DNA of 64,000 bases from an uncultured virus (IMG/VR IMGVR_UViG_3300017917_002187) (IMGVR_UViG_3300017917_002187), one strand, 5' to 3'. Numbered from the stretch's first letter, positions 9,160-29,739 are shown. A program made the numbers and translations. Notes: generated by a model not told the origin, from the letters alone.

Positions 9160-9450
9160 TTACAAGAACTTTATAATTAAATCATTAACCATTGTTCTCA
9201 TTTTTTTTTCTATGGTATAAAAACCCGGGAAGTTTCTGGATAAAACCACATGTACATGATCGACATAATACTTTAGTGGTACTCTCATAAAAAATGTGGA
9301 TGTGTATGTTTCATTATAATTATCATAAATTAATGAGTTAACTTTTACCCTTAAAACTTCTGGTTCAATTTCCTTTAAGGTAAATTTATATATACCATTT
9401 GTTATTGTATAGGTCGGATTACCCCTTAGTAATTTAAATTCATCTTTCAT
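9160..9450 (-). CDS. KLLRG-tag paralog family protein 1
   Basis: MKDEFKLLRG; TNGIYKFTL shared with neighbours. Confidence 0.8.
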   Translation of the reverse strand: MKDEFKLLRGNPTYTITNGIYKFTLKEIEPEVLRVKVNSLIYDNYNETYTSTFFMRVPLKYYVDHVHVVLSRNFPGFYTIEKKMRTMVNDLIIKFL

Positions 9451-9743
9451 AATATGTGTTCTTCTATTACCCTTACTATAGTTTCCATTATATGTTTTAC
9501 TTTATAATTGGAACCCCATATATATATACCCTCTATTAACACCTTTCCCCTTTGAACATATAATGATATATCTTTTTTCATTTGGATGAATCTTGTTACT
9601 TCTTTATATGTTCCACCATATTGATTATATGACAAAACAATACCGAGAATACCGGGTTCAACTTCTTTCATATGTATATGATATTCATCATTGGTGAAAT
9701 CATATTGTTTTATTCCCCTTAATAGTTTTAACTCGTTTATCAT
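9447..9743 (-). CDS. KLLRG-tag paralog family protein 2
   Basis: MINELKLLRG; TNDEYHI. Confidence 0.8.
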   Translation of the reverse strand: MINELKLLRGIKQYDFTNDEYHIHMKEVEPGILGIVLSYNQYGGTYKEVTRFIQMKKDISLYVQRGKVLIEGIYIWGSNYKVKHIMETIVRVIEEHIL

Positions 9744-10027
9744 AAGAAGTTTAATTTATCTGTTATTGAACCCATTATTAATACTATTGGTGTTTTTATT
9801 GGTATTAACCCTGCGAGGTGGTTTTCGGTCATTTCAATGTATTTTGTCATTGAATATCTCATTATTACCCTTCTTGTCATTCTTAATGGTTCGTCATCAT
9901 AGGTTGATGATATTTCAATAACCAAATAGTCCAACCATAGTTCTTCTATCTGACTCAATCTTATTGTATATTCTCCCCACGCGATTGTGTGAACACCAAA
10001 TCCCGATAATAACTTAAATTCTTTCAT
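9740..10027 (-). CDS. KLLRG-tag paralog family protein 3
   Basis: MKEFKLLSG; WGEYTIRL. Confidence 0.8.
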   Translation of the reverse strand: MKEFKLLSGFGVHTIAWGEYTIRLSQIEELWLDYLVIEISSTYDDEPLRMTRRVIMRYSMTKYIEMTENHLAGLIPIKTPIVLIMGSITDKLNFL

Positions 10028-10317
10028 ATTTGATTGAATTTTGCATAGGTTATTAATGACAATAAATTTTTAACTATTATTCTTGGTGAGATTATTGCAT
10101 TGGATACTGGTCTTATATATTTAATCAATTCCAAATATTGGTTAAATGTTCCCGTCATTTCAATTATCTCTGTTAGTAATATCAACCCTCTTTCGTTTTC
10201 ATGTTTTATTTCCACATATAATATATTAACATCCAACATTTCAATTATTATTGTGTATTCATTATAACATATGGTTTTTTTTCTTTGGTGTCCTGTTAAT
10301 AGTTTGTAGTGTTCCAT
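10024..10317 (-). CDS. KLLRG-tag paralog family protein 4
   Basis: MEHYKLLTG (ATG at 10317); YNEYTII. Confidence 0.8.
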   Translation of the reverse strand: MEHYKLLTGHQRKKTICYNEYTIIIEMLDVNILYVEIKHENERGLILLTEIIEMTGTFNQYLELIKYIRPVSNAIISPRIIVKNLLSLITYAKFNQI

Positions 10318-10338
10318 ATTGATTACTCCCACGGGCGA

Positions 10339-10632
10339 TTATTTTAGTATAAAATGTCTCAAATCTTCCTTTATGAAATTTAGATTGGTCTTGTAATCGG
10401 TATTGCTATTATTATCCAAATGATTAATCAATACCCTGGCGAAATCAATTGTGGAGTTAAAATGTCTCTTTGTCTCAAGAATATCCTCGTTAATTATATC
10501 ATCACCATAACTAATCGAATAATATATGGCATCACTCGATAACCTGGCCAAATATATCTCATATGGTCCATTGGTTAAGAATATTCTATCCCTGCCAGTT
10601 AATAATTTGTATGTATCCAATAAATTAGTCAT
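10339..10632 (-). CDS. KLLRG-tag paralog family protein 5
   Basis: DTYKLLTG; TNGPYEIYL. Confidence 0.8.
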   Translation of the reverse strand: MTNLLDTYKLLTGRDRIFLTNGPYEIYLARLSSDAIYYSISYGDDIINEDILETKRHFNSTIDFARVLINHLDNNSNTDYKTNLNFIKEDLRHFILK

Positions 10633-10921
10633 TCTGTGTCTTTAAAATTACATTGTATATAACCTTCACAATTTCTGGTGGAGTTTCATCCAAATATGTT
10701 ATGGTCATCTTCATCATGATTTCGGATACCTTAACAATACTTTGAAAACTATGATTATTCATATTCATTCCATCATATGTCATTATATGATAATCACCCC
10801 CGGATTCGTATTTTACCTTTAATGATAATGTATTCTCGGTTAATTTCTTTAGTTCAACCGAATATGGTCCATTTGTTAGTGTTCTATGATACCACCCGCG
10901 AATTAATTTATATCCTTCCAT
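10625..10921 (-). CDS. KLLRG-tag paralog family protein 6
   Basis: MEGYKLIRG; TNGPYSVEL. Confidence 0.8.
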   Translation of the reverse strand: MEGYKLIRGWYHRTLTNGPYSVELKKLTENTLSLKVKYESGGDYHIMTYDGMNMNNHSFQSIVKVSEIMMKMTITYLDETPPEIVKVIYNVILKTQND

Positions 10922-11243
10922 ATGTTATTGGTTCGTCACAATTTGGACATTCCGTCAACAAAAGTAAATTATTTTTGTGAAATGACCAATTGGATACCAT
11001 TAATTTTTCTTCTATGGTTAATAAGGTATATCCATCCAGATTATCTACCTCACCATATATGTCATAATGCTTGTTCTTGTATCTGGTTATAATATGATTC
11101 TTATGTGGAGATATGTATGGTGTGCAACCTTTATACATCTTTGATAGGAGCACGTGGAATTTATAACACCCACCCTGCGTATATATGTGGTGAATGTATG
11201 GGTCCGTATTCCTTAATTCATCAATAAAATCAATTAGTTTCAT
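10908..11243 (-). CDS. conserved phage hypothetical protein
   Basis: YTQGGCYKF, HIIT, YDIYG, C-terminal CPNC. Confidence 0.75.
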   Translation of the reverse strand: MKLIDFIDELRNTDPYIHHIYTQGGCYKFHVLLSKMYKGCTPYISPHKNHIITRYKNKHYDIYGEVDNLDGYTLLTIEEKLMVSNWSFHKNNLLLLTECPNCDEPITYGRI

Positions 11244-11246
11244 TTT

Positions 11247-11507
11247 TCAATGCAACAATGTTGATATATAAATCCCCAAGTATGATCCAACAACACTACC
11301 CGAAACATATCCGAACCACTGGTGGAATGCTTCCTCACTCTTTGAAATCTTCCTGATTACAAAGAAATTTAATGATGCGATGGTGAAATCACTGATTGCC
11401 GCCAGATGATACTGAGCATCAGCCACCGCTCGGTAGTTTATACATAATATCCCATACAATATTACCTGTATAATGAATAGTAGGGATGCTTCTTTAATTT
11501 TTTTCAT
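11247..11507 (-). CDS. small membrane protein
   Basis: Several hydrophobic segments; probable start MKKIKE. Confidence 0.65.
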   Translation of the reverse strand: MKKIKEASLLFIIQVILYGILCINYRAVADAQYHLAAISDFTIASLNFFVIRKISKSEEAFHQWFGYVSGSVVGSYLGIYISTLLH

Positions 11508-13765
11508 TGTGATATGGTTTGTTATTAATATAATCATCAAAACTATGGTAGAGTTTTTTCACGTGCTCCATATCACAACTACCATCATCAGGGTCCACAT
11601 TTACCGGGTAATGTGCATTGTATTCAATCTCATCATTATCATGTTTCTTTATACTATACCACCCGAATCCCTGATTGGTGGATTTCGATGCATAGTTAAT
11701 TCCAAACTTATGTCTAGAATCTTCACCTAACCACCCATATGCAATTAGGTGGTCAATCTCTTTAAATGTGAAATCTTTCATTTTTACCTCCAAATTATTT
11801 CCGTTTCAACTGATATAACCTCATCACCGTCCTCTTTTTCTCGTTCAGACATGTACCTATTAATCCCATCTAAAACATCTTCTCTTGATTGGAATTTAGT
11901 TCCTTCATTCCAATATGAACCACCACATCCATTTAGATATTTTTCATTATCTCTAAAGTTTAATAAAAATAAACTAATACCATCTCTAGTCCAAACTAAT
12001 GAATATACTTTCTTTACTTTACATATGTAATAAAATTTCCCGTTTAATCGGGTGTGTTTTAATATTGTGAATTTATATTTTTTCATTTTTTAGTTTAATG
12101 CGGATTTGATTTTATTTAATAATTGGATATCATCAACCCTGCTAGGATCCATAATTTCCAAAATGTTATCAAGCTCATATGACAACGAACCCCTGACTTC
12201 AGGAATTTCTAAATGTGATTCATCAATCTCTTCGATTGTTTCCACCAAATCAATCACCAATTGACTATGTTTTTCCATTTGATAAAACGTGGCATTCGAT
12301 GCCTCTTTTATCGTTTCAATTAAATTACTATTCATAACCTTCTATTCTTTTATCTTTGTATGTTATTGTTATTAGTTTGGTTGGGGTCGGTTCATAATAT
12401 TCGTCATTAAAATCAGGAACATTGTCTTCATAATACTCCATGCCAGTTTCATAGTTGTTTGAAAACCACATTTTGTATCTTTCCGAATATGTTAATTCTC
12501 GTTCTTCAATCTTTAGTCCCCACCTTATAGAGTATTCTATATTATGTTTACACTTATCTATAAACAAATTTTTTGTGTGAGGTTCAATACCAGAAGGTGT
12601 AAACGAATCACAATAATCATCATATGCTTTATCCAACAATTCTAATTGTTCTTTGTCCATAACTTTCTATTGTTTAATTCTTTTTCCTGGGTAATGTTTG
12701 TTCTGAATTCTTTGTTTACAAACTTCCTGTTAAACCAATCCCATACTTTCTTTGATGAATTCTTTTTAGGAATCTGAGCATTTTGACTTATCGAAACGAA
12801 GTTTTTCGATTTACATGTGTTGTAATGTGGTCTACTTCCGTGAGCATGACACTCTGGACAATATGAAACTGTTTTCCACCAATGGTCTTGTCTGTTGGAA
12901 CCTTGTTCCAACGTTGTTGCTGTTAATTTACGTCTAGACATCTGGTTTTTTATTTTTTACAATTTCGATTAATTTAATTAAACAAGCAAGTTCTGCTTCT
13001 TCGTATGAATAACAATCTGGAACTTCAGCAACACACCCTGAAGAAAGCCTTAATTGGTCAACTAAATCCATATATTCAGGTGTTGTTTTATGAATAATAA
13101 CAGCATGATTGCCATTACGTAAGTAAAATATTTGGAACATAAGATTATGTTTTTCTCTAAACCATCTAAATGCTTGTTGGTATAGTGGTGCAATTACTTC
13201 TTCATCTGAAACATTATATCCTTTCTTATAATATCCTTCAGATTCGTATAATTTCCCATCAGAATCATAAAATGAAAAACATTTTTCATCAAACCCTAAC
13301 TCTTTTAAGGCTAACGATTGTTCGTAAGGTGCGAATTCTCTATTCATACTGTTCAATTATAGTAATTACTTTTATCTTTACCAAATCAGCATCACTTAAA
13401 CCGAATTTATCTGATTGGGCAACATCTGTTGGTGTGGTTAATTTATTATTCCATATAATCGCATCGGCTGGATTGTCGAACCATTCTCTACTGAAGTAAT
13501 CGGATTTCCCATGACCAAAATATTTTCCGTCATTTGAACGGATTAAAATACCTTCACCGGTTTTTCTTCCGATTTCAATTCTGTGTTCAACCAATCTACA
13601 ATCATCAATCGGAACCCAATCCTTCTGAGAAACATTATGGGTTCCCCCACTCCAATCACCCTCCAATTCCAATTCATGTTCCCGGATTCCAACAACACTG
13701 AACACTTCCCCGTGGTTATATCCACGACCACAGGTTACCTTGTCTTTTAATTTATAATTGTTCAT
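11494..13765 (-). other. run of 7 short hypothetical CDSs (11494-11793, 11784-12086, 12090-12335, 12328-12660, 12642-12941, 12934-13356, 13340-13765)
   Basis: Abutting or overlapping minus-strand ORFs; 12934-13356 has an EF.PYEQSLALKELGF...APLYQQAFRWFR pattern common in Bacteroidota phages. Confidence 0.7.
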
Positions 13766-13973
13766 TTCTTACTGGTATAAAAATGTCTTGAGTTGGTAAT
13801 GGTTCATTCAAAACTTCTTGTCTTAAGAATCTGGATGGTATTGACATACTTCTTCTCAATTGATCCAAAAAATATTGTACATCACTATCTTGTATATGAC
13901 CAACATCAATGGTGAACCATCTTTTTTCTTGGTATCCTCGTAGAAGTTTGAACTGTTTCATCATATCCATCAA
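13752..13973 (-). CDS. KLLRG-tagged small protein resembling a T4-type portal fragment
   Basis: KQFKLLRG then RWFTIDVGHI...DIFIPVR. Confidence 0.6.
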   Translation of the reverse strand: MMDMMKQFKLLRGYQEKRWFTIDVGHIQDSDVQYFLDQLRRSMSIPSRFLRQEVLNEPLPTQDIFIPVRNEQL

Positions 13974-14299
13974 TCGTTAGAAATAGACAATGAATCATTA
14001 ATAGGTAAATCTAATTCAATCTCCCACTCCTTATGTTTACTATGTATATAAGCCAAAAGATTTGTAACTTTATCCGCATGATTTTGGTTTTTTAGTTTAA
14101 AAGTCATTTCTTTAACCAACTTTCCATTATCAAGAGAATATTCTATGTTGGATAGTTTTGCAATCTCTTCGTTTTTATAATAAATGGTTATGCCTGATCC
14201 TGTGAATCCTGATGTGTCATATCCTCTTAATGGATAACACCCATAAAATGTGATTGCAAACATTACAACCAACATTAAAATTATTTTCTTTGTTTTCAT
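13970..14299 (-). CDS. putative lipoprotein
   Basis: Signal peptide ending FYGC. Confidence 0.6.
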   Translation of the reverse strand: MKTKKIILMLVVMFAITFYGCYPLRGYDTSGFTGSGITIYYKNEEIAKLSNIEYSLDNGKLVKEMTFKLKNQNHADKVTNLLAYIHSKHKEWEIELDLPINDSLSISND

Positions 14300-14310
14300 A
14301 TTTTTAATGA

Positions 14311-15219
14311 TTATTCTTTTATGATTAGAATTTCGTGTGATTCTTTGTGGTTGGCAATACCTTCTCTGATTCTGTTTTCCCCTATCCTTGTCTCACCATT
14401 ACCCATTGAATAATTCCAACTCGGATACTCCAACCTAAAATCCTTATAATACTCACGAATTGTTTCACAATTATTATACGACATAATGAATTTACCTTTA
14501 TGTGAGTGAAGTAAGTCTCTTAACAACTCATGGTTAAATCCCTCATGGTGAACCGGAATATTTTTCATTGGGTATATTGCTGCGTGCATTTTATTATCAC
14601 TATCTTTACCCATGAAATAAGGTGGGTCCAAATATAAAAACTCATTAGGGTGGTTTGGAATCACATTATCAAAACTACCTTCAGAAACCGATAGGTGGGT
14701 TCCGTTAAAGTTGGATATATCATCAATCATCTTTGACCATTTTTTATCGGTTAAATAAACTGATGATGGCCAACCAAGATAACCAGGACCATATGATGTG
14801 TTGTGGTTAAAATAATAATAAGAAGCAATCTCCACCGGACTTAACTTAATTACATCTTCCCTTACATAAAAATCGGTCTTCCATCCTTTTAACATGTCTT
14901 GGGTATATTCCCATTTCATTAAAAGTTCTTTTACCTCTTTATATTTTTCATCTGTTGGTTCAATGGTTTTTAAAAAACTAACAAACTCTTTATTTTGATT
15001 AATCATTACATCCCAAAATGTGACCAGTGGTTTAAATATATCATACCCCTGCACATCAATCCCCAAGTTGGTTAAGTAGACTTCCAAGGAACCTCCACCC
15101 ATAAATGGCGAAACCACATTTTTTAAATCTTTTGGGAAATAAGGTACGATGTGTTTAATTGCTCGGGTCTTTCCACCCGCATACCTAATTGGTGTCTTGT
15201 TTATATGTTTCTTTGACAT
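14311..15219 (-). CDS. N6-adenine DNA methyltransferase (Dam/D12 class)
   Basis: RYAGGK, PFMGGGS, YLDPPY, E.LI motifs. Confidence 0.9.
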   Translation of the reverse strand: MSKKHINKTPIRYAGGKTRAIKHIVPYFPKDLKNVVSPFMGGGSLEVYLTNLGIDVQGYDIFKPLVTFWDVMINQNKEFVSFLKTIEPTDEKYKEVKELLMKWEYTQDMLKGWKTDFYVREDVIKLSPVEIASYYYFNHNTSYGPGYLGWPSSVYLTDKKWSKMIDDISNFNGTHLSVSEGSFDNVIPNHPNEFLYLDPPYFMGKDSDNKMHAAIYPMKNIPVHHEGFNHELLRDLLHSHKGKFIMSYNNCETIREYYKDFRLEYPSWNYSMGNGETRIGENRIREGIANHKESHEILIIKE

Positions 15220-16036
15220 CTATTTTATAATGTTTTATTATGTTTATTACTCTTTTACTTAACCCATGCATCAATATTGAATTACCTTTATCGGTTCTGG
15301 GTTCTATTTCAAATATAACTCTTTTTTTGTTTTCACCGATATTAATTCTGGCATTTATTTTAACTTTGTCTTCGGTGGTGTAAAATTCAATGTTGTTGAC
15401 TAGCACCTTTATAAACTCAAAATAATCAATTCTATAATAAATTGAACTATCAACATCCTTAACAATCAAATACGGAACATTTTCACATTTTCTAAAATAA
15501 TAATTCAATAGGTCTTCTAATGTTTCTTTATCATTTAACTTATTGATTATTTCATTTGCAAATTCCTTTCTTCTATCTAAAGATAATGAATTTGTTTCAT
15601 ATGTAGAAATCCAATCACGAAATAAATTTATGAATCTTTGTGGTAGTTGATCGATAGTGTGCATTCCCCATTGTATTTTCTCACCCCCTTTTAGTGAAGC
15701 AAATGATTCACCATCTTTTAATAAGTCAGTTTTGTTGGTGCCCAAATTTACTTCGTACCCAAATTGTTTGAAAAATGATTCATCATCGTGTCCACCCTTT
15801 TTCTTTGAAGATGCCATTTCACTTTTCATTCCGTGTGAACGGATTATCTTATCTTTAATTTTAAGTTCCTTACAAACCCATAAGTAATAACCCCATCTAT
15901 CTTCGTCAGAAACATCATCCCGGAATATATATGAATCCAAGTCAACATATAACCTACTAATCAAATCTGTTCTCATTGAAAACCTTTTGAAAATTTGAAT
16001 GAGGTGTTCCTGCATTTCTTTATCTTTCATTCTCAA
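15185..16036 (-). CDS. putative PD-(D/E)xK restriction-endonuclease-like protein
   Basis: GH.DE...KTD...SLK pattern; overlaps MTase start. Confidence 0.45.
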   Translation of the reverse strand: MRMKDKEMQEHLIQIFKRFSMRTDLISRLYVDLDSYIFRDDVSDEDRWGYYLWVCKELKIKDKIIRSHGMKSEMASSKKKGGHDDESFFKQFGYEVNLGTNKTDLLKDGESFASLKGGEKIQWGMHTIDQLPQRFINLFRDWISTYETNSLSLDRRKEFANEIINKLNDKETLEDLLNYYFRKCENVPYLIVKDVDSSIYYRIDYFEFIKVLVNNIEFYTTEDKVKINARINIGENKKRVIFEIEPRTDKGNSILMHGLSKRVINIIKHYKIDVKETYKQDTN

Positions 16037-16964
16037 TCATTTTTAGAATTTTATTATATCTATTTTGAGCTGAAGATCTAGAATCATCTAACTTGGATAG
16101 GTTATTATTAATTTTATCTTTATCTAAATTAATATTATTTTTATTCATTACGTGAATAATAAAAAACAAATTAGATTGTGTTTTAAATGTTTTCTTAGAA
16201 GGTACGGATTTAATGTGTTCATACCACAAATCAAACAAACCAATTATATTATTGAATTTATTAATATCAATATCAGATTTAACAAATGACATCATTAATT
16301 CTGCCTCGGTACTATTTGACATGACTATTCCATCGTTAGCTGAACACACTTTAATTATTTTTATTATATTACCATATAAAGTCCTCTCAACCGAATCACT
16401 TTTATTTTTTACATTATATAAACGTAATAACTTCTCATCACCAATGAATTTATGTTTAATGAAATTGTTAAATGTGTTATCTATACCCCATATTAAATTA
16501 TCACTGGTAACCGTTTTCCCACCATTTACTTTACCAAACTTTCTTGCCAATTCTCTTTTTGTTGCATACTTTATTAATCCAACAAATATTTTTTTATTTA
16601 AAAACTCTAATTTCTTATTTGTGAAGTTACCAATAAAATCGTCATCTGTTATCGATTCTAAACTTGCCATTCTGTGTTGACAATCTTCAATTGAATATAG
16701 TTTACCCTTTTTCAGGTATGAATTAAAAAACTCTTTATCTTCTTTACTTTCAGAACACTCAAAACTTGTTTTTAAGTCTGCAAAAATAAATGGCAACAAC
16801 AAATCGTTGTTTAGTGCCGATTCAATAAAACTTTTTGTTGCGTTTTTTTTAAGTGTAAGTGGTCTTTGGTGAGGTAACTTAACAAACCTACTATTTTTTA
16901 AGTGGTCCAATAATTTAGAAATGGTCCACTCTTCCATTGTATATGTAAACTCCATAATGGTCAA
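16020..16964 (-). CDS. DUF262 (ParB-like) domain protein
   Basis: HQR, IEDCQHR (cf. DGQQR), F.KVNGG. Confidence 0.5.
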   Translation of the reverse strand: MTIMEFTYTMEEWTISKLLDHLKNSRFVKLPHQRPLTLKKNATKSFIESALNNDLLLPFIFADLKTSFECSESKEDKEFFNSYLKKGKLYSIEDCQHRMASLESITDDDFIGNFTNKKLEFLNKKIFVGLIKYATKRELARKFGKVNGGKTVTSDNLIWGIDNTFNNFIKHKFIGDEKLLRLYNVKNKSDSVERTLYGNIIKIIKVCSANDGIVMSNSTEAELMMSFVKSDIDINKFNNIIGLFDLWYEHIKSVPSKKTFKTQSNLFFIIHVMNKNNINLDKDKINNNLSKLDDSRSSAQNRYNKILKMIENER

Positions 16965-17087
16965 GATAATTTATGAAAGAAAAAATAAACCTAAAGCAAT
17001 TACACAAATAAAATACAACAATAACAAAATCGTCGCTAACATTTCTTTTTTTTCTTCTTTTTTACTCATAGTATATAAACTTTAAAA

Positions 17088-17859
17088 TTACCTAATACTC
17101 ATACTCACGTACCAACAACTATATTGGGTATCATATTCAATTTTTGCAACATGCCTTTCGGTGTAGTATCTACCATCACTATTTTTGACATATCCATTCG
17201 AGTATAGTGCTTGTTCGTAATCACTATATGAAGTATTCTTTATGGTATAAAGGTACAATGCACAAATATTGTTTTTTGTAAAATAATATACTTTGTACTC
17301 TGTTGATGACGCAGCTCCCAAGTAATAATCTCCTTGTTTATCATACCCCTCAGTAAGTATGTAACCCTTCAAGTTCATCTCATATTTAATGTCTCTGAAA
17401 GAGAACCCCACATAGTTCTGTGCTCGTGCCGATAATCCAATTACCAACAAGAAAAATAACACTATTTTTTTCATTTTATCTAATTTTTTCTACCTCAATT
17501 GCCACTATTTTTCTTGTCAAATAATCAAGATGAATAGTGAAATACCTCACAACTTCAAACTTATTAAATTGTCCTATGACAATCATATGACCATTGTTGA
17601 AACTATCAACGTACTTGGTTATTAAACCAGAATCCGAATAATTTTTAACTAAATAAGTAAGAACTTTTCTCTTTGTGTGTTTAACTTCGTCCCGACTAAC
17701 ACCAACCCTTATCACACTAACCTCATTTGATAAAAGATTATTTAACTTAAAACCCTTAAAACCATTAACATACACATTCACATCAACTTTCTTATGGACA
17801 TTTTTTACCTGTCCAAACCCAATTAACGGAAATAATATGAAAATTAAATACCTCACCAA
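17088..17859 (-). other. two secreted-type hypothetical CDSs (17088-17474, 17476-17859)
   Basis: Signal peptides followed by Gln (ARAQ, GFGQ); TATATTTG box at 17888-17895. Confidence 0.65.
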
Positions 17860-17907
17860 TCTTAATGTTTATTTTTTTAATCTAATACAAATATAATGTG
17901 TTTTTAT

Positions 17908-19201
17908 TTATTCTCCAAATTTTCTTAATTTTAAATCAGAAAACGAATCTGAATTAACAAATTCTTCCTCCAAGTACATCATAACCTCCCTCATTGCTTT
18001 AGATTCATCCTCAGATGCCCTTATACTCAATGCCAAACCACCAGCAAGTATTGGTCTGATTTCCTCAATTGTTAATATCGATGATACACCTTCCGATGGT
18101 TGTTTTAGATTTAGGTACATTCTACCATCTTCTTTTAATGTTGCATCAACAATTACTTGGTAATTCTTTTCCATTATTGTTCTGTCTCCTTAATTAAATT
18201 CAATATGGTTGATTTGTTTTTTTCACATTGATCAACTAAATCATTTATTAAACCTTTAATATCATCAGACTCCAAAACCTCATCAACTGATTTGGTGGAA
18301 AGAACTTGTGTTAACACCCAAAATGGTGTTAATTTATTTCTAAGTTTAGATTGTGGGGTTTCAGGTATCCATTCACCATTAACTCCCCGTGTTCCAGTTT
18401 GTTCCATAATTAAAAATTTCTATCCTTTTCCATTCTTTTTAAACAATCATATGGTGTTTCGTGCGGTAACATTTCATACCCACAACCAAGTGTTCCACCT
18501 TTCCAAGACCCTTTTCTTTTTCCAACCTCTTTGTCAAATTCAATTTCAATTGTTTCTCTTGTTCTATTGAAAAGGGGACACCAATATAACCACCTCATTC
18601 TCCATTCACGTTCTGTTACACTAATAGTTGCATTAACTATGGTACCATCATATGAATCAACGTATGGATGTGTTTCTGTCCATTTATTTTCTTCCAACCA
18701 CAAGTGACTACCAACTCCACCTATATTATCTGCAGACCATTTCGTTCTATTCTTTTTTGTTTCGTGATGCCAAGTTAAATCATTTAATAAATTTGATGTT
18801 CTGTACCATTCATAGGACCATGGCATTTCAAATGTCTTCCATTTTCTACCACCTTCAAAGTTCCCCGCACCACCAATATAAATCCATATAGTATTGTCGT
18901 GAAAATTAAATCCCCAAGCAGCACTATCACAATCTTGTATCCCAGTTCTTATTGGTAGATTAATGTATAATTTACCCCAACCAAAAAATATAAATGGTGT
19001 TAGTAAAATGAACCACATGGAAACCATTAATAAAAATGGTAATGTAAATAAAACTATTAATTGGGTTACACTGGCGTGAATTTGGGGTCTCTCATCAAAA
19101 TAACCCGCCTTTTCAACAAAAAGACTTGAACTATACTTAGGGTAAAAACTAACCCATCCATCTAGTTTATTTGTGTTAGATTCTGTTTGATAATTTCTCA
19201 T
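17908..19201 (-). other. three hypothetical CDSs (17908-18174, 18174-18407, 18410-19201)
   Basis: Abutting ORFs; the last has a TM segment and is Trp-rich. Confidence 0.7.
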
Positions 19202-19230
19202 GTAACAAATCTAACGAAAAAAAATGAAAT

Positions 19231-19258
19231 AAAAAAGGGGGATTTAATCCCCCCTTTT
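19231..19258 (-). terminator. intrinsic terminator (possibly bidirectional)
   Basis: AAAAGGGGGA/TCCCCCCTTTT inverted repeat. Confidence 0.8.
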
Positions 19259-20701: not shown

Positions 20702-20747
20702 CTTACCATATAAATATAAGATGATTGATAAGTTTTATATATATTGT

Positions 20748-21005: not shown

Positions 21006-21008
21006 AAC

Positions 21009-21440
21009 TTAACGATATTCTATTCTTTTACTTTTAATTGTAATGTCACCACCATGGAATAATTTAAATGAACGAGAACCATGACCAAGCTCAGTACCCT
21101 CTTTACTTTCTTTATAAAATTTCTCATCAACCGGAACATCAAAACTGAAACTGATTCTATCAAAAGATAATTCCATTTTATGTTCTTGGAAATGTAGGGT
21201 TAAAATATACACTGGTGTCTTTCCAGATGAATAAATTTTCTTTTCTGTTTTTAATTCAGATACCTCATAGTTCAAATTATCGTATTCTTTTCTCAAAGAG
21301 TTAACATCAGTTAGTAAACTACTTCTTTCCGAATTTAAACTGGTTATTGAATTCTTCAATCTGATTTCTTCTTCAGGTGTGTACGAAGGTCCACATGCGG
21401 TTAAGAATAACGATGTGATTAACAATAGTTTTATTTTCAT
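21009..21440 (-). CDS. putative coiled-coil lipoprotein
   Basis: LTAC lipobox then heptads. Confidence 0.65.
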   Translation of the reverse strand: MKIKLLLITSLFLTACGPSYTPEEEIRLKNSITSLNSERSSLLTDVNSLRKEYDNLNYEVSELKTEKKIYSSGKTPVYILTLHFQEHKMELSFDRISFSFDVPVDEKFYKESKEGTELGHGSRSFKLFHGGDITIKSKRIEYR

Positions 21441-21685: not shown

Positions 21686-21714
21686 TGTTTTAATTAAATT
21701 TGATTTATCTTTCA

Positions 21715-21870
21715 TTATCCTCTTTCTAATACGATTGCGAATTTGCCTGTTGTTTGGTAAGATGAACCTGTGGCAACATGTTGTGCTGTCACGGATATTA
21801 TTCTCCAACCCTTATCCAACCAACCTTGTACATCGTACTGAGTATCGGTTATTATAAATTTCTGTTCCAT
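21715..21870 (-). CDS. 51-aa hypothetical protein (not in ORF track)
   Basis: MEQKFIIT...WLDKGWRIISV...IVLERG*. Confidence 0.6.
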   Translation of the reverse strand: MEQKFIITDTQYDVQGWLDKGWRIISVTAQHVATGSSYQTTGKFAIVLERG

Positions 21871-21875
21871 ATCTT

Positions 21876-23323
21876 TTAACGTATTTTATTTCTATAGATA
21901 ATTGTTAATTTATCAAGACACGTATTGTAACCAGGTAAACCCCGGAAATCTTTTTGTTTTATTGATTGGTATTTTTCATCGTTCTCACAGATGTATGCAA
22001 GTTTACCACGATAGTAAACAAAAACTAACTTATACCACTTGTTCTCAAGTATAAGTGTATATGAATTACTCATCATTGCACCACCCATACCTTCCCAACC
22101 ACATGAAGTGTTACCCCACATTTGTGAAACTAAATGTAGATTGATTTCTTTCCATAGTTCGTGTTCAGATTGGGTCATCCAAGTTGATGTGTCTCTTTTA
22201 ACAATGTTGGTATTCCAATATTTTTCCAAACCATCGGAGGTTTCACCCATACCTAATTGTGAAAAATAGTTTGATAACCCCTCATAATGAACAATACTAT
22301 TCATTATGGATGCCATTTCTTCCATGTCAACACTAATTCTCATATCTTATAATTTCAAATGTTTTACCACTGGTTGATTTAACCATTTCACACCACTCGA
22401 TTGTTTCATCAAATGTGTTGAAATATTTGTATACTTTACAATCGTGTTCAAGATAAACCGTTACATAAGGTTTATTCCACACAACATTGTTATTATCAAC
22501 TAGAAAACCGTTTTCAATTAGCTCTTCTTTGGTGTATGGGGTTGCATCCCAAGAATCACCCATATAACCTTCATAATGAGAACCATTCTCATAAAAACCC
22601 TCAGAGTACCAAGAATCTCTCTTATACAATCCAAAGAAAAACGTCTTTTGTTTTCGTGGTAACCACTTGTAACTTGTTTCTCTTTTATCTATAACTTTAA
22701 TTCCGATTATTCGGTTAACGTCAAAATGTTCTTCTATTTTAATTTTCATATCTTAATCATTTGGAAATTCAACATCAAATTTTAGTTCGATGATATGTTT
22801 CATACAATTCTGTTTTATAACTTGTTGTTGGTGAGTATACTCTTGGAACTGTCGACAAATCTTCTCAAGTTCTGCAACCGAGTGGTTCCCATCACCAGAA
22901 TAAAAAGGTTGTTCAACTTTCATTCCCTTGTAATGGATTGGTAGGTACATATCATCCGACATGTAAACCATGTGTTCTTCTTTTAATTCTGCCATAATTT
23001 TATTTTCTGATTACAACAATACTATCGTTTTCAATGATGATGTCTTCAGGTAAAAAGGTTCTTGTTGTCACGTTTTCTTCATAGACATTAACAGAGTTGT
23101 GACGATATTTTCCACTTTGGTAATTTGTTCCAACAACTTGTCCTTGGAAGACTGCAACCTTTACATAACCGTCACCATCTGAAACCGAATAAATTTTCAA
23201 ACCCTTTAAGTTTTCAGGCAACCCAGACTCATCTCCACGAACTTTCATTCTTGTTACTCCAGGGTCCTCACAGGAAACAAAGATTAAGGAAAGAAGAAAT
23301 AATGATAAAATATTTTTTTTCAT
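21876..23323 (-). other. four hypothetical CDSs (21876-22343, 22333-22749, 22753-22995, lipoprotein 23000-23323)
   Basis: Abutting ORFs; last has an FVSC lipobox. Confidence 0.65.
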
Positions 23324-23327
23324 GTGA

Positions 23328-23891
23328 TTAATCGTTAAAAAGGTTAATAAGATATTGATACATCTCTTCATATGGATTACCAACTTCTCGACCTAACTTA
23401 ATCATAAAATTGATGTTCTCTTTCTTGTACATTTCAAACATACGACTCTTGGTCATCTTTGAATATTGTACATTAGCAATTCGGTCACACAACTTAACGA
23501 ACACCGCACCAGGAGTATTTCTGATTCCCTCATAGTACTTGTCGTTAGCACGTTCCGCTCTGTTCTTACCTTTCTCGTTGGATACCGCATATACAATGTC
23601 AGCAGCTTCTTGACCTAAATGTTCTTTAACATCGTTATATGAAACTCTACAATCCTCGATAAGGTCGTGACCCCATGTTGCAGTTAAACAAGCATCTCTT
23701 AATGTGACTTGATTTTGTTTTGGTCCTCTCCATGGTTCACCAGTAAAGTAATCTTTTGTATCGTCCAAAAGATGTTTGAAATCCGTTGCCGCTTGATAAA
23801 CCATTCGTAAATGAAATTCATACGGAAGGTATGTGTCGTAGTAGTGATTTGTGTTGTGGTGTTGTTCTATACACCATTGTTGTTTGTTCAT
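23328..23891 (-). CDS. HD-domain hydrolase, RelA/SpoT small alarmone hydrolase-like
   Basis: PYEFHL, HDLIED, VKLCDRIAN. Confidence 0.8.
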   Translation of the reverse strand: MNKQQWCIEQHHNTNHYYDTYLPYEFHLRMVYQAATDFKHLLDDTKDYFTGEPWRGPKQNQVTLRDACLTATWGHDLIEDCRVSYNDVKEHLGQEAADIVYAVSNEKGKNRAERANDKYYEGIRNTPGAVFVKLCDRIANVQYSKMTKSRMFEMYKKENINFMIKLGREVGNPYEEMYQYLINLFND

Positions 23892-23941
23892 AACGTTTCT
23901 CCTTTCTTTTCCAAATATAATACTATTTTTGGAATAACAAA

Positions 23942-24316
23942 TTAATTTATTTTGGAAAAATATATAACTTCCGGGAAATCACCAAAAACAAATTTGGTAA
24001 CATCACATAACCAAGGGGTTAGATTAATTTCAAAACCCCTATAATTTTTCATTTCATAAAAGGCACCATTCCCCAATTCGGTTGCCAATCTGATAAACCT
24101 AAGTTCATCCGAATTATCATATTTGTCAACTGATAATAACAACCAAACATGATCCTCACCCTCCGAAATAAAATCTAACATGGTATCGGCACCATAAACC
24201 ATTTCTAGTTCAGATTTATCTCCAGTCCATGTTGGTAGATCAACATACCATCTACCAGAAGTTTCTTTATAGAATTTTAACCTTTCCACAATTAGTTTAG
24301 ATAAAGAGATAACCAC
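23942..24316 (-). CDS. DUF6717-like protein
   Basis: WYVDLP.W.G, LEMVYGADT, WLCDVT. Confidence 0.55.
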   Translation of the reverse strand: MVISLSKLIVERLKFYKETSGRWYVDLPTWTGDKSELEMVYGADTMLDFISEGEDHVWLLLSVDKYDNSDELRFIRLATELGNGAFYEMKNYRGFEINLTPWLCDVTKFVFGDFPEVIYFSKIN

Positions 24317-25562
24317 TTTGAAAACACATATCCTGAATACGCCCCTGATGCCGCTGCCATCGGTAGAACAACGAACTTACCTAACACTGTTTCGTATTTA
24401 GCTCTATTCAATATAAACGATATTAGAGTGTAATATAAAACAAAATTAATGAACACCACAACATCAATTTGTTTTGCCATGAATATCACAATACTATTAC
24501 CCAAAAACCCCCAAGTGAAATTTATTGCGGATTCTTGTATTATTTCTAATGGTGTGGTCTTAGCATCCATCACCTCAATCTTTTTATTTAGTGTTTTTTT
24601 TACCATGTGTTTAATTTTTTTAATATCCGTAATAAATCATTACATTCTTCTTCCAATCGAATGTGTGATAAAGAATAACCAAATTGAAAATGGAATATTC
24701 ATACTTCCAACTGGTGATGAAATCTTTATTGGGGTCAGTAATGTTATATGGTTTCATATCATCAAACCAACTAGTAACCCCCCATTCCATTCCCATACTT
24801 CTAACATGGTCAATCATTTTATACACACCCGAGAGTTCTTTTTCGGTCATTGGTGTGTCCTTAGTTTTCATGAACCCCGCTTTAGAATTTGTACCATCAA
24901 AGAATGGGTCCAACATATCTTTATAGTATGATTGAATCTTCTGCGCGTAGTGTTCAATTAAAAGTTTAACAAACTCTTTGTCCACCACATAAAAATCATG
25001 TTCCTCGGTGAAATGTTTTTGTGTTTCCTTGTTCTTGAATACTGTCTTGAAATGTTTCTTTGGGAATTGGTCAACATACTTACCCAGTTCATAATGCATA
25101 TTATATGCAACATCGTACACACCAACGTGACCTGGTTTATCGTATGGGTCATCGGACCATTCTTCATTCTTAAACGCATACAATTCCTGTAAGGTCATTC
25201 GTTTTATTTTGTTGTATTCCTTTTTTGGTAAGGAACCCAAATAATTTCTGTATCCCATTTTACTTATTTAATTTATCTAAATCCTCTTTCAATCTTCTCA
25301 AGAATGTATCATCTCCATCATCACCGGATAATAACCAGTCGATTCTCTGTGCATAAATCTGAGCTTTTTTAAGTAGTTCAACACCCTTTTTAAATTCCTC
25401 AATTATCTCATCAGGATAGTCGTGGTAAAATTCTTGGTCAGTCCAATAGTTATCCTTATCTCTTGGGTTGATTGGTTTTTTATTCTTTTCAATCACACTC
25501 TCGATGCTATCAGCAATTGTTGTGATTCTATACTGGTCGTAATCGAAATGTCCTCCTGACAA
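24292..25562 (-). other. three hypothetical CDSs (membrane 24292-24606, 24620-25258, 25260-25562)
   Basis: Abutting ORFs; last has MSGGHFDY...RIDWLLSGDDG phage pattern. Confidence 0.7.
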
Positions 25563-25574
25563 TTTAACCTCCTT

Positions 25575-26051
25575 TTAATTTTGTATAAACCATTCAGGAA
25601 CGCTTCTTTTGGTCCATTTAGCGAATCTGAATTTATCATTAATATAATAATTTCTGTAAGATTGAACAACAGAATATCCAACTTTATATTCATCAGGCAT
25701 TGCCTTTGCTGGTTCGGTAAAACCAATATCAGGAATATTCGGTTTATGAATTAAACACCACTCAATAACATCTTGAGATTTGTGACGTTTTCCATACCTA
25801 TATGTGTATTCTTCACATAACTCCAAACCTAACTCACACAAATAAAGATAATTGGGTAAACTCTTACGTGCCCAAATAGAACACGGGTGGTTTTTGTGTG
25901 ATAATTTATAAGGGATCGTATAACGACTTTCGGATACGTGGTGAACACCACATAAAAGTTGTGCGGTTTCCAATATCATTTTAACAACATGTTTATCAAC
26001 ATGATATTGTGCACATTTTTTTACATCAAAATCTAACATGAATATATTCAT
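25575..26051 (-). CDS. pyrimidine-dimer DNA glycosylase (DenV/Pyr_excise-like)
   Basis: MNIF.LD, HVDKHVVKMILE.AQLL, H.NHPC..W, EYT.RYGK.H, AMP..Y, YR.YY. Confidence 0.8.
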   Translation of the reverse strand: MNIFMLDFDVKKCAQYHVDKHVVKMILETAQLLCGVHHVSESRYTIPYKLSHKNHPCSIWARKSLPNYLYLCELGLELCEEYTYRYGKRHKSQDVIEWCLIHKPNIPDIGFTEPAKAMPDEYKVGYSVVQSYRNYYINDKFRFAKWTKRSVPEWFIQN

Positions 26052-26053
26052 TT

Positions 26054-26431
26054 TTATCTCAATAATTTGAATTCGTTTATGTTTATTTTCTTTTTATATC
26101 TTTCTTTCTTAACCAACTCATCAACAATTTTTTTTATTTTGAGTATGGTTTTCTTTGATGGTCTAACTCGCCCAAATGTAGCCTTTTCAACATCGGTGTA
26201 TGGTGTGGCAAATGAGTATGGGTAATTTTGTATCCATAAGGTCCTTGGACCTAAATGTAGGTTATAATAATCACCATCCAAACAATTTTTTTTACCTAAT
26301 TTTGGTTCACATGTTTTTAATAATTCGTTTATTTCCTTATCCCATTTCTTAGAATAATTGTTTTGGAAGGTACAAAAAAGAAAAGTAAAAAATAATTTTA
26401 TTTTATCTACAATTTTATTAAACATATCCAT
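26054..26431 (-). CDS. hypothetical protein ending in EFKLLR
   Basis: C-terminal copy of the KLLR tag. Confidence 0.7.
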   Translation of the reverse strand: MDMFNKIVDKIKLFFTFLFCTFQNNYSKKWDKEINELLKTCEPKLGKKNCLDGDYYNLHLGPRTLWIQNYPYSFATPYTDVEKATFGRVRPSKKTILKIKKIVDELVKKERYKKKININEFKLLR

Positions 26432-26433
26432 TT

Positions 26434-26718
26434 TTAAATTTCACCAAAAATTTTTGTATTTAATTTATTTACCATATCATCTATAAAATTAACGAATTCT
26501 GTACATCTTTGACCCTCATAAACCATTTCATTACGATATTTTTGATATAAAACCTCCTCTACTTTAATAACAATTTCAGCCCTAATTTCGGGAGTATTAA
26601 ATTCAAAAGTATATGATGTTAGAATCTCATTAATGTCCTGATTAATGGATTTAAGTAGTTCCATGTTCAGTTTTGGACCACCCCTTAACAATTTATAATT
26701 TGAATTTAAAATATTCAT
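26434..26718 (-). CDS. KLLRG-tagged protein resembling a tail-sheath C-terminal fragment
   Basis: NYKLLRGG then ILTSYTFEFNTPEIRAEI. Confidence 0.6.
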   Translation of the reverse strand: MNILNSNYKLLRGGPKLNMELLKSINQDINEILTSYTFEFNTPEIRAEIVIKVEEVLYQKYRNEMVYEGQRCTEFVNFIDDMVNKLNTKIFGEI

Positions 26719-27527
26719 TATCTCCGATTCAATATGTTGATTATGTGTTGCATCCCAACATCATTAATGTGTTCATTCATATGATCTAAAAAGTCATTAT
26801 CGAAAGAGTATTCACCAAAATCTAAATCATATTGTTTGAATGTTTTATATTGTTCTGCAACAGTTTTTGGCATCAAATCAAGAGTGGTTTCTTGTTTCAT
26901 CATTTCACAATGAAACAATCCAAAAAGTTCAGGTGGTACAGGAATGGTGAACGGACTAATCTCATCATCGTTAGAATTCCAACCTTGTATTTCCTTCAAG
27001 TCTTTGCTGATTGATATTGCCCATTTTTCATTGGTTACTTTATTGATGTTGTATATCAATTTATATTTTGGAATATATTTGTTCCAATGTTGTATTTGGG
27101 TTGTGCACCACCTAGTATTTGAACCGTACATCTTCGATGCCTCATAACTTAAAGGAATCATGATTAACCACGTATGGTCACTATATAAAATCTTGGTTTG
27201 TTTTTCAAGTTCTTTAAGTCTAGCTATTTCATCAGCTTCAACAACCTCATCTCTGATTTGTTTAAAACTGGTATACATACCAATGTCTTTATTTTTTATT
27301 CTATTGGCATTACAATGATCCTCAAACTTTTTCAATGTCAATAAATTTTCTTCACCATAAATGTGTCGAAGAATGTTCATATTGTTGTTCGCAGAGTTCT
27401 CTTTTAACATCTTTATTAAAAAACCCAAATACTTATTTGTGTCACTTGGATCTGCTTCTGATATTAAATCAATCAAATTGATATTTAAATCTGGGTTTTG
27501 TCTTTTTATTGTGTCTATCTTTGACAT
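26718..27527 (-). CDS. jumbo-phage WCT-motif protein (paralog of 53562-54524)
   Basis: DPS.TNKY, PLSYEAS..YGSNTRWCT. Confidence 0.75.
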   Translation of the reverse strand: MSKIDTIKRQNPDLNINLIDLISEADPSDTNKYLGFLIKMLKENSANNNMNILRHIYGEENLLTLKKFEDHCNANRIKNKDIGMYTSFKQIRDEVVEADEIARLKELEKQTKILYSDHTWLIMIPLSYEASKMYGSNTRWCTTQIQHWNKYIPKYKLIYNINKVTNEKWAISISKDLKEIQGWNSNDDEISPFTIPVPPELFGLFHCEMMKQETTLDLMPKTVAEQYKTFKQYDLDFGEYSFDNDFLDHMNEHINDVGMQHIINILNRR

Positions 27528-27529
27528 AG

Positions 27530-27751
27530 TTAACTCCTTTCGATTCTAAAATTTTCTAAAACAATTTCTCTACATGGGTTCGACATGTGTTCCAAAACAC
27601 CATCTCTTCTGTTTATTAACATGGTAACACTACTCATAAATGAGATGCTCTCACCACCCATAAGTGCTGGGTCCACACCAAGAACATACCGGTTGGTTTT
27701 GGGGTGTCCACTTAATAATTTAAAGTTATCTATCTTGTTGTTGCCAAACAT
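27530..27751 (-). CDS. KLLRG-tagged protein with terminase-nuclease-like YVLGVDPA motif
   Basis: NFKLLSG, YVLGVDPA, SNPCREIVL. Confidence 0.55.
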   Translation of the reverse strand: MFGNNKIDNFKLLSGHPKTNRYVLGVDPALMGGESISFMSSVTMLINRRDGVLEHMSNPCREIVLENFRIERS

Positions 27752-28879
27752 GGTTGTAAATAATGTAAAAGTCTTATAATTCTTTCTTCGTCTGTGTAAT
27801 GTAGAACCATAACCGAATCAAATCTCCTACCGATAATATCGGTTTCATCTGTGATGGGATGATATTCGATACGTACTGAGTATTTGATTTCTCTTAGGAA
27901 ATTACGAATAACCTCTCTTCTATCTGACACTACAGCAACTTTCATTATGAATAATATGTAACCAAACCCCATTTAACATTAACGTTTTCTTCACCAAACA
28001 TTTTTGTTAAAAGATTTAATTCTTCTTGGTGTTCTTGAAAGAACCATGATTTTTGGGTTGACATCAAATGATTTGAATCACTTAAATCGTACACCGAAGA
28101 AAAATCACCATCATACGAATCAATTAAAACAGAAACCGGAAAACGTCTGTTTGAAATAAAAATATTGTCCATACGTTCTGGTGACCATATTTTATCAAAG
28201 AAATTATCATCAGCATTTCCGTGAAAATATTCTGATGGTGTGTAGGTCTTTCTTATTTCACGATCAACACTCACAATCTCAGAACCACACTCTGAACAAA
28301 ATTTGTTTTTCTCTTGCTTTATTCCAGGATGTTTAACACAAAGTCTATCAACCTCAACAATAATTTCTTCTTTGTTACCAGACACTTCAATATAGGGTCC
28401 AATGTAAACATTATACGATACTCCCATGATTATTATTTTTTAATTTTTGCACATTTATAACCATCACCCCACGACACATTTTCAAACAAATGTGGGTGAC
28501 TGAATTCATCAACTATTTCAAACTCAACTTCAGAATCAACATCAATTATTTTTTCGGAACCGAATTCTATATTGTATATTGGTAATATCTTTAATTTATC
28601 ATAATCATCGATATACTTGACTTGAATTCCTGATGTTGTATTAATTGTTATTCCTTTCATTTGTTATAATAAAACTTTAGCTATGACCCAACAAAAATCA
28701 ATGTGTGATTTAACTTTTTCATTTCCACTATTGAGATAAAGTGTGTTTTTTTCTCTAGTTTCAATTTTAAATTTCACATCAAATAAATTGTGTGACGTTA
28801 CAATTTCTTGAGACATGATATTACCACCATTCTCCATAAAAACCCTAGCGGGGATTAAGTAATTAAAAGTTTGTGACAT
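27730..28879 (-). other. four short hypothetical CDSs (27730-~27945, 27945-28427, 28433-28660, 28664-28879)
   Basis: Abutting ORFs; 27945-28427 has a C..H...C..C zinc ribbon. Confidence 0.6.
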
Positions 28880-28882
28880 ATT

Positions 28883-29338
28883 TTAAAATTTTAATGTTAT
28901 GTGTTTTTGTTTTCTTTTACCACGAAATAACCAAATAAAATTCAATAATAATCTATTTATTATGAATTTCAAAAAATAAATTTTCAAACTACTAACATCC
29001 AATAACTTAACAACAGTTATTTGGTACTCTTCACCGAAATTATCCATCAGTATTTTATAACGATGGTGACCATTCATAATAACGTTTTTGGATGTTACTA
29101 TTATATAACCCATTTCATAATCAAAACCATTTTGAACAATCTGATCTTGAATGTAAAAATGTATTGGTTCCATTTTTATTCTGTTGGTCTGTATCTTCAG
29201 TTGTGACATAGGAATTGTTTCATATTTTATTTTATGACACCACCATTGATTGCAGTAATATTCTTTGTTGTGTGGTTTAAAATCATCACCAACATATTTT
29301 TGACTTAATGTTACTTTTATTTTGTTAAACCACCTCAT
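28883..29338 (-). CDS. ParB/Srx-like domain protein
   Basis: IIVT..NVIMNGHHRY. Confidence 0.5.
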   Translation of the reverse strand: MRWFNKIKVTLSQKYVGDDFKPHNKEYYCNQWWCHKIKYETIPMSQLKIQTNRIKMEPIHFYIQDQIVQNGFDYEMGYIIVTSKNVIMNGHHRYKILMDNFGEEYQITVVKLLDVSSLKIYFLKFIINRLLLNFIWLFRGKRKQKHITLKF

Positions 29339-29739
29339 TCTGTCATCATTATTAATAACTCTTCGTTTTCATTAAACACTGGCATTGGGTCATTATGTCT
29401 ATAAACATTACCGTCAGGTCCATGAATTTCCAAAATTTTCAATGTTGTTCTTGTACCAAAAATAAAATGGTCAGCAAATGCAGACATGGTTCCATTAAAA
29501 CAATGCCTAATTGGGTTGTCTGGAATATCCACATACCAAACACAAACAATCGAAGTTATATGTTCACGAAAGTGATATGGAATAAGTCTAGTGTTTATTC
29601 TTAAAACTGGTGCGGGAAAAAATGTTGATCCTGAGAATGCTAAATTTGAAATAGTTGCACCTGAGGAGAACACATTATCCATTACCCAATTTGATATGGA
29701 TTTAAATTTGTAACCCCTTAATAATTTAAAGTCTTTCAT
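29335..29739 (-). CDS. KLLRG-tagged hypothetical protein
   Basis: MKDFKLLRGY. Confidence 0.7.
   Translation of the reverse strand: MKDFKLLRGYKFKSISNWVMDNVFSSGATISNLAFSGSTFFPAPVLRINTRLIPYHFREHITSIVCVWYVDIPDNPIRHCFNGTMSAFADHFIFGTRTTLKILEIHGPDGNVYRHNDPMPVFNENEELLIMMTE

Follow-up and report, generated by a model that had tools for sequence, protein, structure and literature searches.

Terminal peptides that target or dock otherwise unrelated proteins are already known as a class, and a conserved peptide found on eleven small predicted proteins of an uncultured virus (IMG/VR IMGVR_UViG_3300017917_002187) probably belongs with them. This peptide, hereafter the tag, is carried by genes located between positions 9,160 and 29,739 of a 64,000-nucleotide stretch of viral DNA, which was analysed in full and is called the window below. 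It reads [FYL]KL[LI][RST]G near the N-terminus of ten of the proteins and FKLLR at the extreme C-terminus of the eleventh. The described systems that come closest to it are presented first. In bacteriophage T4, the internal proteins IPI, IPII and IPIII are highly diverse defence proteins that have only the capsid targeting sequence (CTS) in common (PMC3012670). The CTS is an N-terminal propeptide of 10-19 residues with distinct targeting and processing positions, in which the site of the gp21 protease is L/I-x-E; the Alt protein has a C-terminal propeptide as well (PMC9026906). The cargo targeting peptides of encapsulins are C-terminal, with GSL and LGI elements and a consensus of the LGIGSL[KR]G type (PMC7925596). 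Finally, the heptapeptide NRLLLTG was crystallised in the substrate cavity of the Hsp70 chaperone DnaK (PMC3709807).

Like the T4 CTS, the tag is a short terminal peptide, mostly N-terminal, that is common to unrelated, fast-evolving small proteins of accessory or anti-defence type within a single lineage. Indeed, ten genes belonging to five families carry it within residues 2-15, ahead of bodies that do not align with one another. A conserved residue closes the tag where T4 has its processing site, and the C-terminal use of the tag in the protein coded at 26054-26431 recalls the C-terminal propeptide of Alt. There is, however, no sequence likeness between the two: none of the ten tags shows [LI]-x-E before the body, the ending being of the L-[RKST]-G type, and one carrier, unlike the proteins bearing the T4 CTS, has the tag as its extreme C-terminus. 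The phage itself is not of the T4 type: T4 head genes are absent from the window, and by helicase the closest cultured relatives are Bacteroides phages at about 40% identity. As for the encapsulin peptides, they too are terminal, about ten residues long and borne on a flexible linker, and they dock unrelated cargo inside a shell of the HK97 fold. They share with the tag a Gly hinge and a three-residue likeness at the end (...GSL[KR]G there, ...KLL[RK]G here). Unlike them, the tag lacks the GSL and LGI elements of the consensus cited above and is N-terminal in 10 of its 11 copies, and no encapsulin shell family is found among the Pfam matches of the 125 window open reading frames (ORFs).

The best explanation of the motif, more fully [DEN]-x-[FY]-K-L-L-[RKST]-G, is that it is a short, disordered and transferable address peptide. 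The evidence for this is given first; the identity of the protein that might read the address is then discussed.

Occurrence, conservation and portability of the tag

In a six-frame regular-expression scan of the whole window, the pattern KL[LI].G matches 11 times. Ten of these matches spell [FYL]KL[LI][RST]G in minus-strand genes, their first residue falling between positions 4 and 10 of the called ORF. The eleventh, IKLLIG at 19051, falls within a 30-codon plus-strand ORF and was discarded as noise. The C-terminal copy is found in the gene at 26054-26431, which terminates with ...NEFKLLR followed by TAA. All eleven sites listed in the original prediction are therefore present as described, on the evidence of the ORF listing, the translations and the six-frame scan. 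Chance does not produce such a distribution. From amino-acid composition, 0.038 matches are expected in a predicted proteome of 20,053 residues, and 0.0035 if only the first 15 start positions in each of the 125 genes are considered; over 2000 per-protein shuffles, the mean was 0.04 matches and the maximum 2. When the six paralogs described below are counted as a single event, the Poisson probability of at least five events is about 4e-15. The back-translated DNA pattern was matched 10 times against 1.36 expected, a count reached in none of 100 shuffles, and KLLRG, present in 5 genes, is the most widely shared 5-mer among the 125 predicted proteins of the window. The occurrence of the motif is thus real and statistically unambiguous, and the enrichment at protein termini, on which the original prediction depended, stands when set against the composition background (10 sites where 0.04 are expected, all of them in the first 15 residues).

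The carriers are small, lineage-specific orphans, all coded on the minus strand, and one family has been expanded to six tandem paralogs. The genes of the latter are located at 9160-9450 (96 amino acids; tag FKLLRG at 9421-9438), 9447-9743 (98 amino acids; LKLLRG at 9714-9731), 9740-10027 (95 amino acids; FKLLSG at 10001-10018), 10024-10332 (YKLLTG at 10291-10308), 10339-10632 (97 amino acids; YKLLTG at 10594-10611) and 10625-10921 (98 amino acids; YKLIRG at 10895-10912). The second to sixth of them match the family hidden Markov model (HMM) presented below, the second with an E value of 1.8e-32. Judging from its homologues P0044 and P0056, the fourth paralog probably starts at the ATG at 10317 (MEHYKLLTG). 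Four further genes, each representing a family of its own, carry the tag N-terminally: 13752-13973 (about 72 amino acids; FKLLRG at 13935-13952), 26434-26718 (94 amino acids; YKLLRG at 26680-26697, then GPK), 27530-27751 (73 amino acids; FKLLSG at 27707-27724) and 29335-29739 (134 amino acids; FKLLRG at 29713-29730). The C-terminal carrier, 26054-26431, is a basic protein of 125 amino acids with an isoelectric point (pI) of 9.7, whose FKLLR is coded at 26057-26071. Carriers are referred to below by their first coordinate. None has a significant Pfam or PHROG family, apart from a weak PHROG match of 26054 to an uncharacterised family.

A variant, FKLFHG followed by G, is coded at 21052-21068 in the minus-strand gene 21009-21440 (143 amino acids), 17 residues before the C-terminus. 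It could be a chance occurrence or a twelfth carrier, and we regard it as unproven. To the eye, the N-terminus of the same protein resembles a lipoprotein signal, with a hydrophobic stretch and then a Cys.

In each carrier family, the metagenomic homologues retrieved have kept the tag. For the paralogs, a word-indexed search gave 12 close homologues, all of which have it. An exhaustive HMMER search with the family profile against 1.84 billion representatives then yielded 33 matches at E <= 1e-3; 5 of these had already been found, 23 were new (90-107 amino acids) and were included, and 5 long proteins (657-1750 amino acids, with several short matching stretches) were left out. In the 41-sequence alignment of the paralog family, a form of the tag lies within the first 25 residues of all 41 members: the strict form in 33 and variants such as FRLLTG, FSLLRG or YKLFKG in the other 8. 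By column, Gly is conserved in 41 of 41 sequences, Leu in 40, Phe or Tyr in 39 and Lys in 35. For most members, identity to the first sequence amounts to only 15-30%, and the tag is the best-conserved stretch of these otherwise fast-diverging small proteins.

The same holds for the other families. The tag is kept in all six homologues of 13752, including P0032 and P0037 (the latter at 60% identity), in both homologues of 26434 (P0030 at 80% and P0033 at 51% identity), in both homologues of 27530 (P0029 and P0038), while the residues that follow it diverge, and in all four homologues of 29335 (79-87% identity). P0032 also contains a 24-residue, Gly-rich insert of tri-residue repeats (G-x-S-G-x-S type) between its N-terminal hairpin region and the remainder of the protein. 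As to the C-terminal carrier, FKLLR is kept in the five lineage homologues of 26054 (56-85% identity), with 9 further residues after it in P0039. We had considered that this copy might be the fossil of a lost gene start, and rejected the idea in view of its retention in five diverged homologues out of five. Two remote homologues of the 26054 body are without FKLLR. One, at 27% identity, is an Erythrobacter phage protein in which no similar sequence is seen; the other, an ORF of LR756502.1 (29% identity), ends in ...LNKLIK. Since the remote homologues lack the peptide and the lineage homologues keep it, it is an add-on maintained by selection. The number of residues ahead of the tag ranges from 0 (P0060) to 13 (P0029); because the distance to the Met varies in this way, the free N-terminus is not what is read. 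The tag is tolerated at either end of a protein.

The bodies that follow the tag are not related in any way that we could detect. When a family HMM combining the six window paralogs with the 12 close homologues (18 sequences) was searched against the 552 ORFs of the window, the other four N-terminal carriers came 7th, 8th, 9th and 13th (E 0.007-0.86), in alignments that reach residues 1-17 at most. Profile-profile comparison (hhalign) of the 41-member paralog alignment with the alignments of the other four N-terminal families likewise aligns N-terminal columns only: 21 with the 13752 family (probability 94%), 17 with the 29335 family (90%), 13 with the 27530 family (84.9%) and 17 with the 26434 family (59%). 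AlphaFold2 models point in the same direction. The model of 9160, made from the 18-sequence alignment, has a mean predicted local distance difference test score (pLDDT) of 84 and consists, from residue 13 onwards, of four strands and then two helices, residues 1-8 being at pLDDT < 50. That of 26434, of moderate confidence as it was made from 3 sequences only (mean pLDDT 73.5), has an all-helical body, and its residues 1-13, a segment that ends exactly at the tag Gly, are at pLDDT < 50. According to these models, at least two body folds bear the same disordered tail, and the tag lies outside the folded body, with the invariant Gly as the hinge between the two. The paralog body could be assigned to no known fold: Foldseek against PDB and BFVD gave no match at E <= 0.001, and the best VIA-align Z score was 6.0, under the stated noise level of 7-8. 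ESM Atlas gave no usable match.

The motif is therefore carried by at least six protein families without detectable body homology, five N-terminally and one C-terminally. The claim that the bodies of the last five carriers are unrelated to the six paralogs is supported, since the N-terminal carriers align over no more than the first 11-21 residues by HMM and hhalign and the predicted folds of 9160 and 26434 differ; for the same reasons, the carriers do not reduce to one homologous fold. The part of the earlier inference that called the tag a portable linear motif is upheld by its presence on such unrelated bodies, in tails at pLDDT < 50, at either end, and by its retention in homologues. In the 13752 and 29335 families, the likeness to the paralogs extends a few residues into the first strand (T/S-I-x-N/V-G), so that the spread of the tag may in part reflect capture of a slightly longer 5' module.

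The peptide as the unit under selection

All ten N-terminal copies are in the frame of the gene that contains them, and the six-frame scan finds no copy in any other frame. Within the tags, Leu is coded by TTA, TTG, CTA and CTT, and Arg by AGG, CGA and CGC. Leu and Arg codons even switch family from one tag to another (CTT CTA CGA as against TTA TTA AGG), which means that the amino acids are held through changes at the first and third bases; the codon differences between copies that had been pointed out earlier are thus confirmed. The fifth position of the tag is occupied by R, S or T in the window, and by K and V too in relatives. Sharing of synonymous codons between families is near what codon usage predicts (68 observed and 55 expected, in 131 comparisons). 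This combination of a constant frame and changing synonymous codons shows that the peptide, and not DNA or RNA, is the target of selection, as originally proposed.

Two other ways of accounting for the conservation have to be weighed at this point. The conserved unit could be a nucleic acid located near gene starts, such as a translational-repressor operator, a recombination site or a promoter, with the peptide as a by-product. Each copy does lie within 45 nucleotides of a start codon, the C-terminal one ending 8 nucleotides ahead of the start of gene 25575-26051, and codon choice within the tags shows two unexplained skews: of the 6 tags with Arg, 4 use AGG and none AGA, although AGA makes up 55% of the Arg codons of the window, and 5 of the 10 tags use GGA for Gly, a codon with a usage of 26%. 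Yet the ten copies are all in the frame of the gene, and residues are kept despite first- and third-position changes; swaps between R, K, S and T preserve the character of the peptide but not the bases, Rfam gives no match in 8000-31000, and the peptide is kept by protein homologues located on other contigs. We consider this explanation highly improbable. Alternatively, the tag could be a relic of ancestry, inherited from one ancestral gene or acquired through repeated recombinational capture of the same 5' gene end, and would then be nothing but the least-diverged part of the N-terminus, with no common reader. This would be in keeping with the hhalign probabilities of 84.9-94% over 13-21 columns in three of the four families, with the almost identical tag DNAs of 9160, 26434 and 29335, and with the preference for AGG just mentioned. 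However, a neutral remnant is not expected to be the most conserved block among members that are 15-30% identical, the less so in a disordered tail, which is where drift is fastest. Moreover, the bodies differ in fold, and survival at the C-terminus in five homologues out of five would be unexpected. A relic is accordingly judged quite unlikely.

Candidate readers of the tag

Peptide-level selection, portability, a disordered tail, use of either terminus and variable spacing from the Met together argue for a short linear docking motif that is read by a groove on another protein. We consider it probable that the tag is a portable, protein-level docking signal with a common reader, a single conserved protein to which all carriers would present the peptide. 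The preferred candidate for this function would be the head-assembly machinery of the phage itself, either the scaffold or core or the interior of the capsid. Through the tag, small accessory proteins of various kinds would be loaded into the prohead, from which they would enter the next host with the DNA, and a prohead protease may cut at or beside the Gly. A virion-loading signal of this kind, possibly protease-processed and akin to the T4 CTS, is a tentative reading suggested by analogy. The carriers fit the T4 picture because they are small, lineage-specific, partly tandem-expanded and located among genes of counter-defence type.

Several observations weigh against virion loading. Pfam and PHROGs reveal no virion, head, scaffold, portal, tail-tube or protease gene in the 64-kb window, nor any other candidate reader or protease for the tag, so that no reader can be named. 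The structural module is simply out of sight here, since the contig measures 78.6 kb, of which the window covers 64 kb, and its relatives extend to 128-205 kb. The tags have no L/I-x-E site and bear no likeness to the T4 descriptions, and the extreme C-terminal copy, which is without the Gly, suits pure docking better than a cleaved N-terminal propeptide. The charge of the carriers is unremarkable (pI 4.9-9.7; the window median is 6.2) and gives no sign of DNA-associated basic proteins. In addition, the carrier genes belong to an early-looking leftward array, and to the eye the hexapeptide is as close to the DnaK model substrate NRLLLTG as to anything else.

This last resemblance leads to a different reader. 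The tag could dock on a conserved host hub, DnaK or one of ClpX, Lon and FtsH, and either recruit the chaperone or act as a degron that sets a common lifetime for a cohort of early proteins. DnaK generally binds exposed, extended segments with a Leu-rich core flanked by basic residues, and the tag, an F/Y-K-L-L-R/K/T/S-G segment in tails at pLDDT < 50, is of this exposed and extended type (aromatic, basic, Leu-Leu, basic or polar, Gly). With NRLLLTG it shares, by eye, a Leu-Leu core, an adjacent basic residue, a T/R-G ending and an exposed, unstructured state, the YKLLTG variants having the whole of LLTG in common with it. Occurrence at either terminus and at variable distances from the Met is what a groove-binding peptide would show, and the carriers are found among early or accessory genes. 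On the other hand, DnaK and the AAA+ proteases read degenerate signals, whereas the aromatic residue and the Lys of the tag are fixed; the invariant Gly (41 of 41) and the near-invariant Lys and Leu are left unexplained by such a reader. No J-domain, Hsp70, ClpP or Lon gene is seen by Pfam in the window. A host hub should also be available to other phages, yet the motif is not enriched in the two that were scanned: in DAC19, the nearest cultured Bacteroides phage, the pattern is matched 4 times, as against 6 for a reversed control, and no match spells the tag by translation, while in the 642-kb phage LR756502.1 it is matched 16 times, as against 13 for the control. On balance, docking on a host hub is doubtful. 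Less probable again, and in our opinion unlikely, is that the tail is an assembly arm, which would add a strand or short helix to another carrier or to a phage hub and so build homo- or hetero-oligomers, for instance mixed rings of the six paralogs. The six tandem paralogs are of equal size, and a tail that is disordered in monomer models and nevertheless the most conserved segment of the protein is typical of folding on binding; in the paralog, 13752 and 29335 families, furthermore, the similarity extends into the first strand (T/S-I-T/S/D-N/V-G). But bodies as unrelated as those of the all-helical 26434, the 134-residue 29335 and the basic 26054 would all have to accept or donate the same arm, and the C-terminal copy has neither the Gly nor a subsequent strand.

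The likeness to ubiquitin-like C-termini that the original prediction had put forward as speculative finds no support. Ubiquitin-like LRGG C-termini and double-glycine leaders do share with the tag a Leu-x-Gly element, in which Gly is a possible processing point. Unlike LRGG, however, the motif stands at the N-terminus in ten of the eleven genes, Gly-Gly is confined to the 26434 family, the Gly is preceded by R, K, T or S, and the models of 9160 and 26434 have no ubiquitin-like (beta-grasp) layout, as judged from their secondary structure. Pfam detects no peptidase family in the window. In type IV pilins and class III signal peptides, a hydrophobic helix some 20 residues long comes after the Gly; unlike these, the tag Gly is followed by polar or variable residues (N, I, F, H, R, W, Y, G) and by no hydrophobic stretch. 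A membrane-targeting amphipathic helix was set aside by eye, as the six residues have no polar and non-polar faces and their conservation is too strict.

Genomic setting, distribution and significance

The window is a section of a large phage genome, with a GC content of about 32% and 2 tRNA genes. In the protein collection its genes are assigned to a contig of 78,580 bp, while the contigs bearing close relatives measure up to 128,855 and 205,220 bp. Judged by helicase, the Bacteroides phages DAC16-23 and SJC03 (about 179 kb) are the nearest in culture, at 40% identity, followed by Chryseobacterium and Flavobacterium phages. According to Pfam and PHROGs, the long leftward gene array codes for a UvrD helicase, three DNA methyltransferases, an Acb3 homologue, RNA-repair enzymes and a NADAR/PRTase/NAPRTase block. 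Acb3, NADAR/NAPRTase, the RNA-repair enzymes and the methyltransferases, which share this region with the carriers, are genes of counter-defence type.

The Acb3 homologue is a 263-residue protein coded at 18410-19201, assigned by Pfam to this family of inhibitors of the cyclic oligonucleotide-based antiphage signalling system (E 8.9e-36). The block at 32611-39983 contains nucleoside 2-deoxyribosyltransferase-like, DUF1937, NADAR, phosphoribosyltransferase and NAPRTase domains by Pfam, and looks like a module for nicotinamide adenine dinucleotide or nucleotide salvage, or for counter-defence. The set of RNA-repair type, at 47282-51924 and 63370-63948, comprises an RNA ligase with a PHA02142 OB domain, a Thg1-like enzyme, a class I/II aminotransferase, a poly(A) polymerase/CCA-adding head domain and the HAD domain of 'Swiss Army Knife' RNA repair proteins (HAD_SAK_2). 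The two tRNAs, at 39967-40045 and 41016-41099, both have A as first anticodon base according to ARAGORN (Cys ACA and Ser AGA), which is unusual for tRNAs of bacterial type. Closer to the carriers, the protein coded at 26718-27527 shares with that of 53562-54572 the domain of PHROG 17056, whose function is not annotated; located between two tag carriers and adjoining the C-terminal carrier, it is a candidate partner on position alone. At the nucleotide level, the only match of 9160-13973 in the phage collection is a 213-nucleotide segment at 13144-13356, which is 73% identical to the 462-kb uncultured phage LR756500.1.

Beyond the homologues described above, the exact sequence MK[DE]FKLLRG occurs in IMG/VR on 5 contigs (L002:3510-3800 and L003-L006) of otherwise unrelated phages, always in one 97-residue family that starts exactly M-K-E-F-K-L-L-R-G. 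These contigs have nothing in common with the window but collagen repeats and a DUF6717 gene, and the match is a probable coincidence. A by-eye likeness of this family to small beta-barrel co-chaperonins found no support in Pfam. In the window, Pfam identifies a collagen-repeat protein at 8478-8864. A match to the paralog family was not found in DAC19, in a search made without positive control. Scans of viral contigs (with a 269-residue neighbour protein and P0003) and of metagenome contigs (with P0003) found no relative, a degenerate pattern for the conserved paralog peptide found nothing in either, and a full-text literature search for four forms of the hexapeptide found nothing beyond a single, unrelated eukaryotic paper.

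Short linear motifs have been well studied in eukaryotic viruses and, to our knowledge, rarely recognised in phages. The tag described here singles out a group of orphan proteins that have one step of their biology in common. Should the reader be a host chaperone or protease, this would be a rare phage case of a single handling signal placed on a cohort of proteins. Should it be the capsid, the tag would make it possible to tell from sequence alone which proteins of uncultured phages are injected, and would offer a handle for packaging foreign proteins into phages of this group, as the CTS did for T4. By analogy with T4, we put forward, as a speculative possibility, that a lineage of large uncultured phages, probably infecting Bacteroidota, independently evolved a terminal label of 6-8 residues by which many small proteins, unrelated and evolving fast, are loaded into the capsid and injected together with the DNA. 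The principle of T4 capsid targeting would then have been invented a second time, with a peptide unrelated in sequence. If the capsid-loading label is true, tagged genes in metagenomes would become readable as the injected arsenal of the phage, made up probably of anti-defence proteins.

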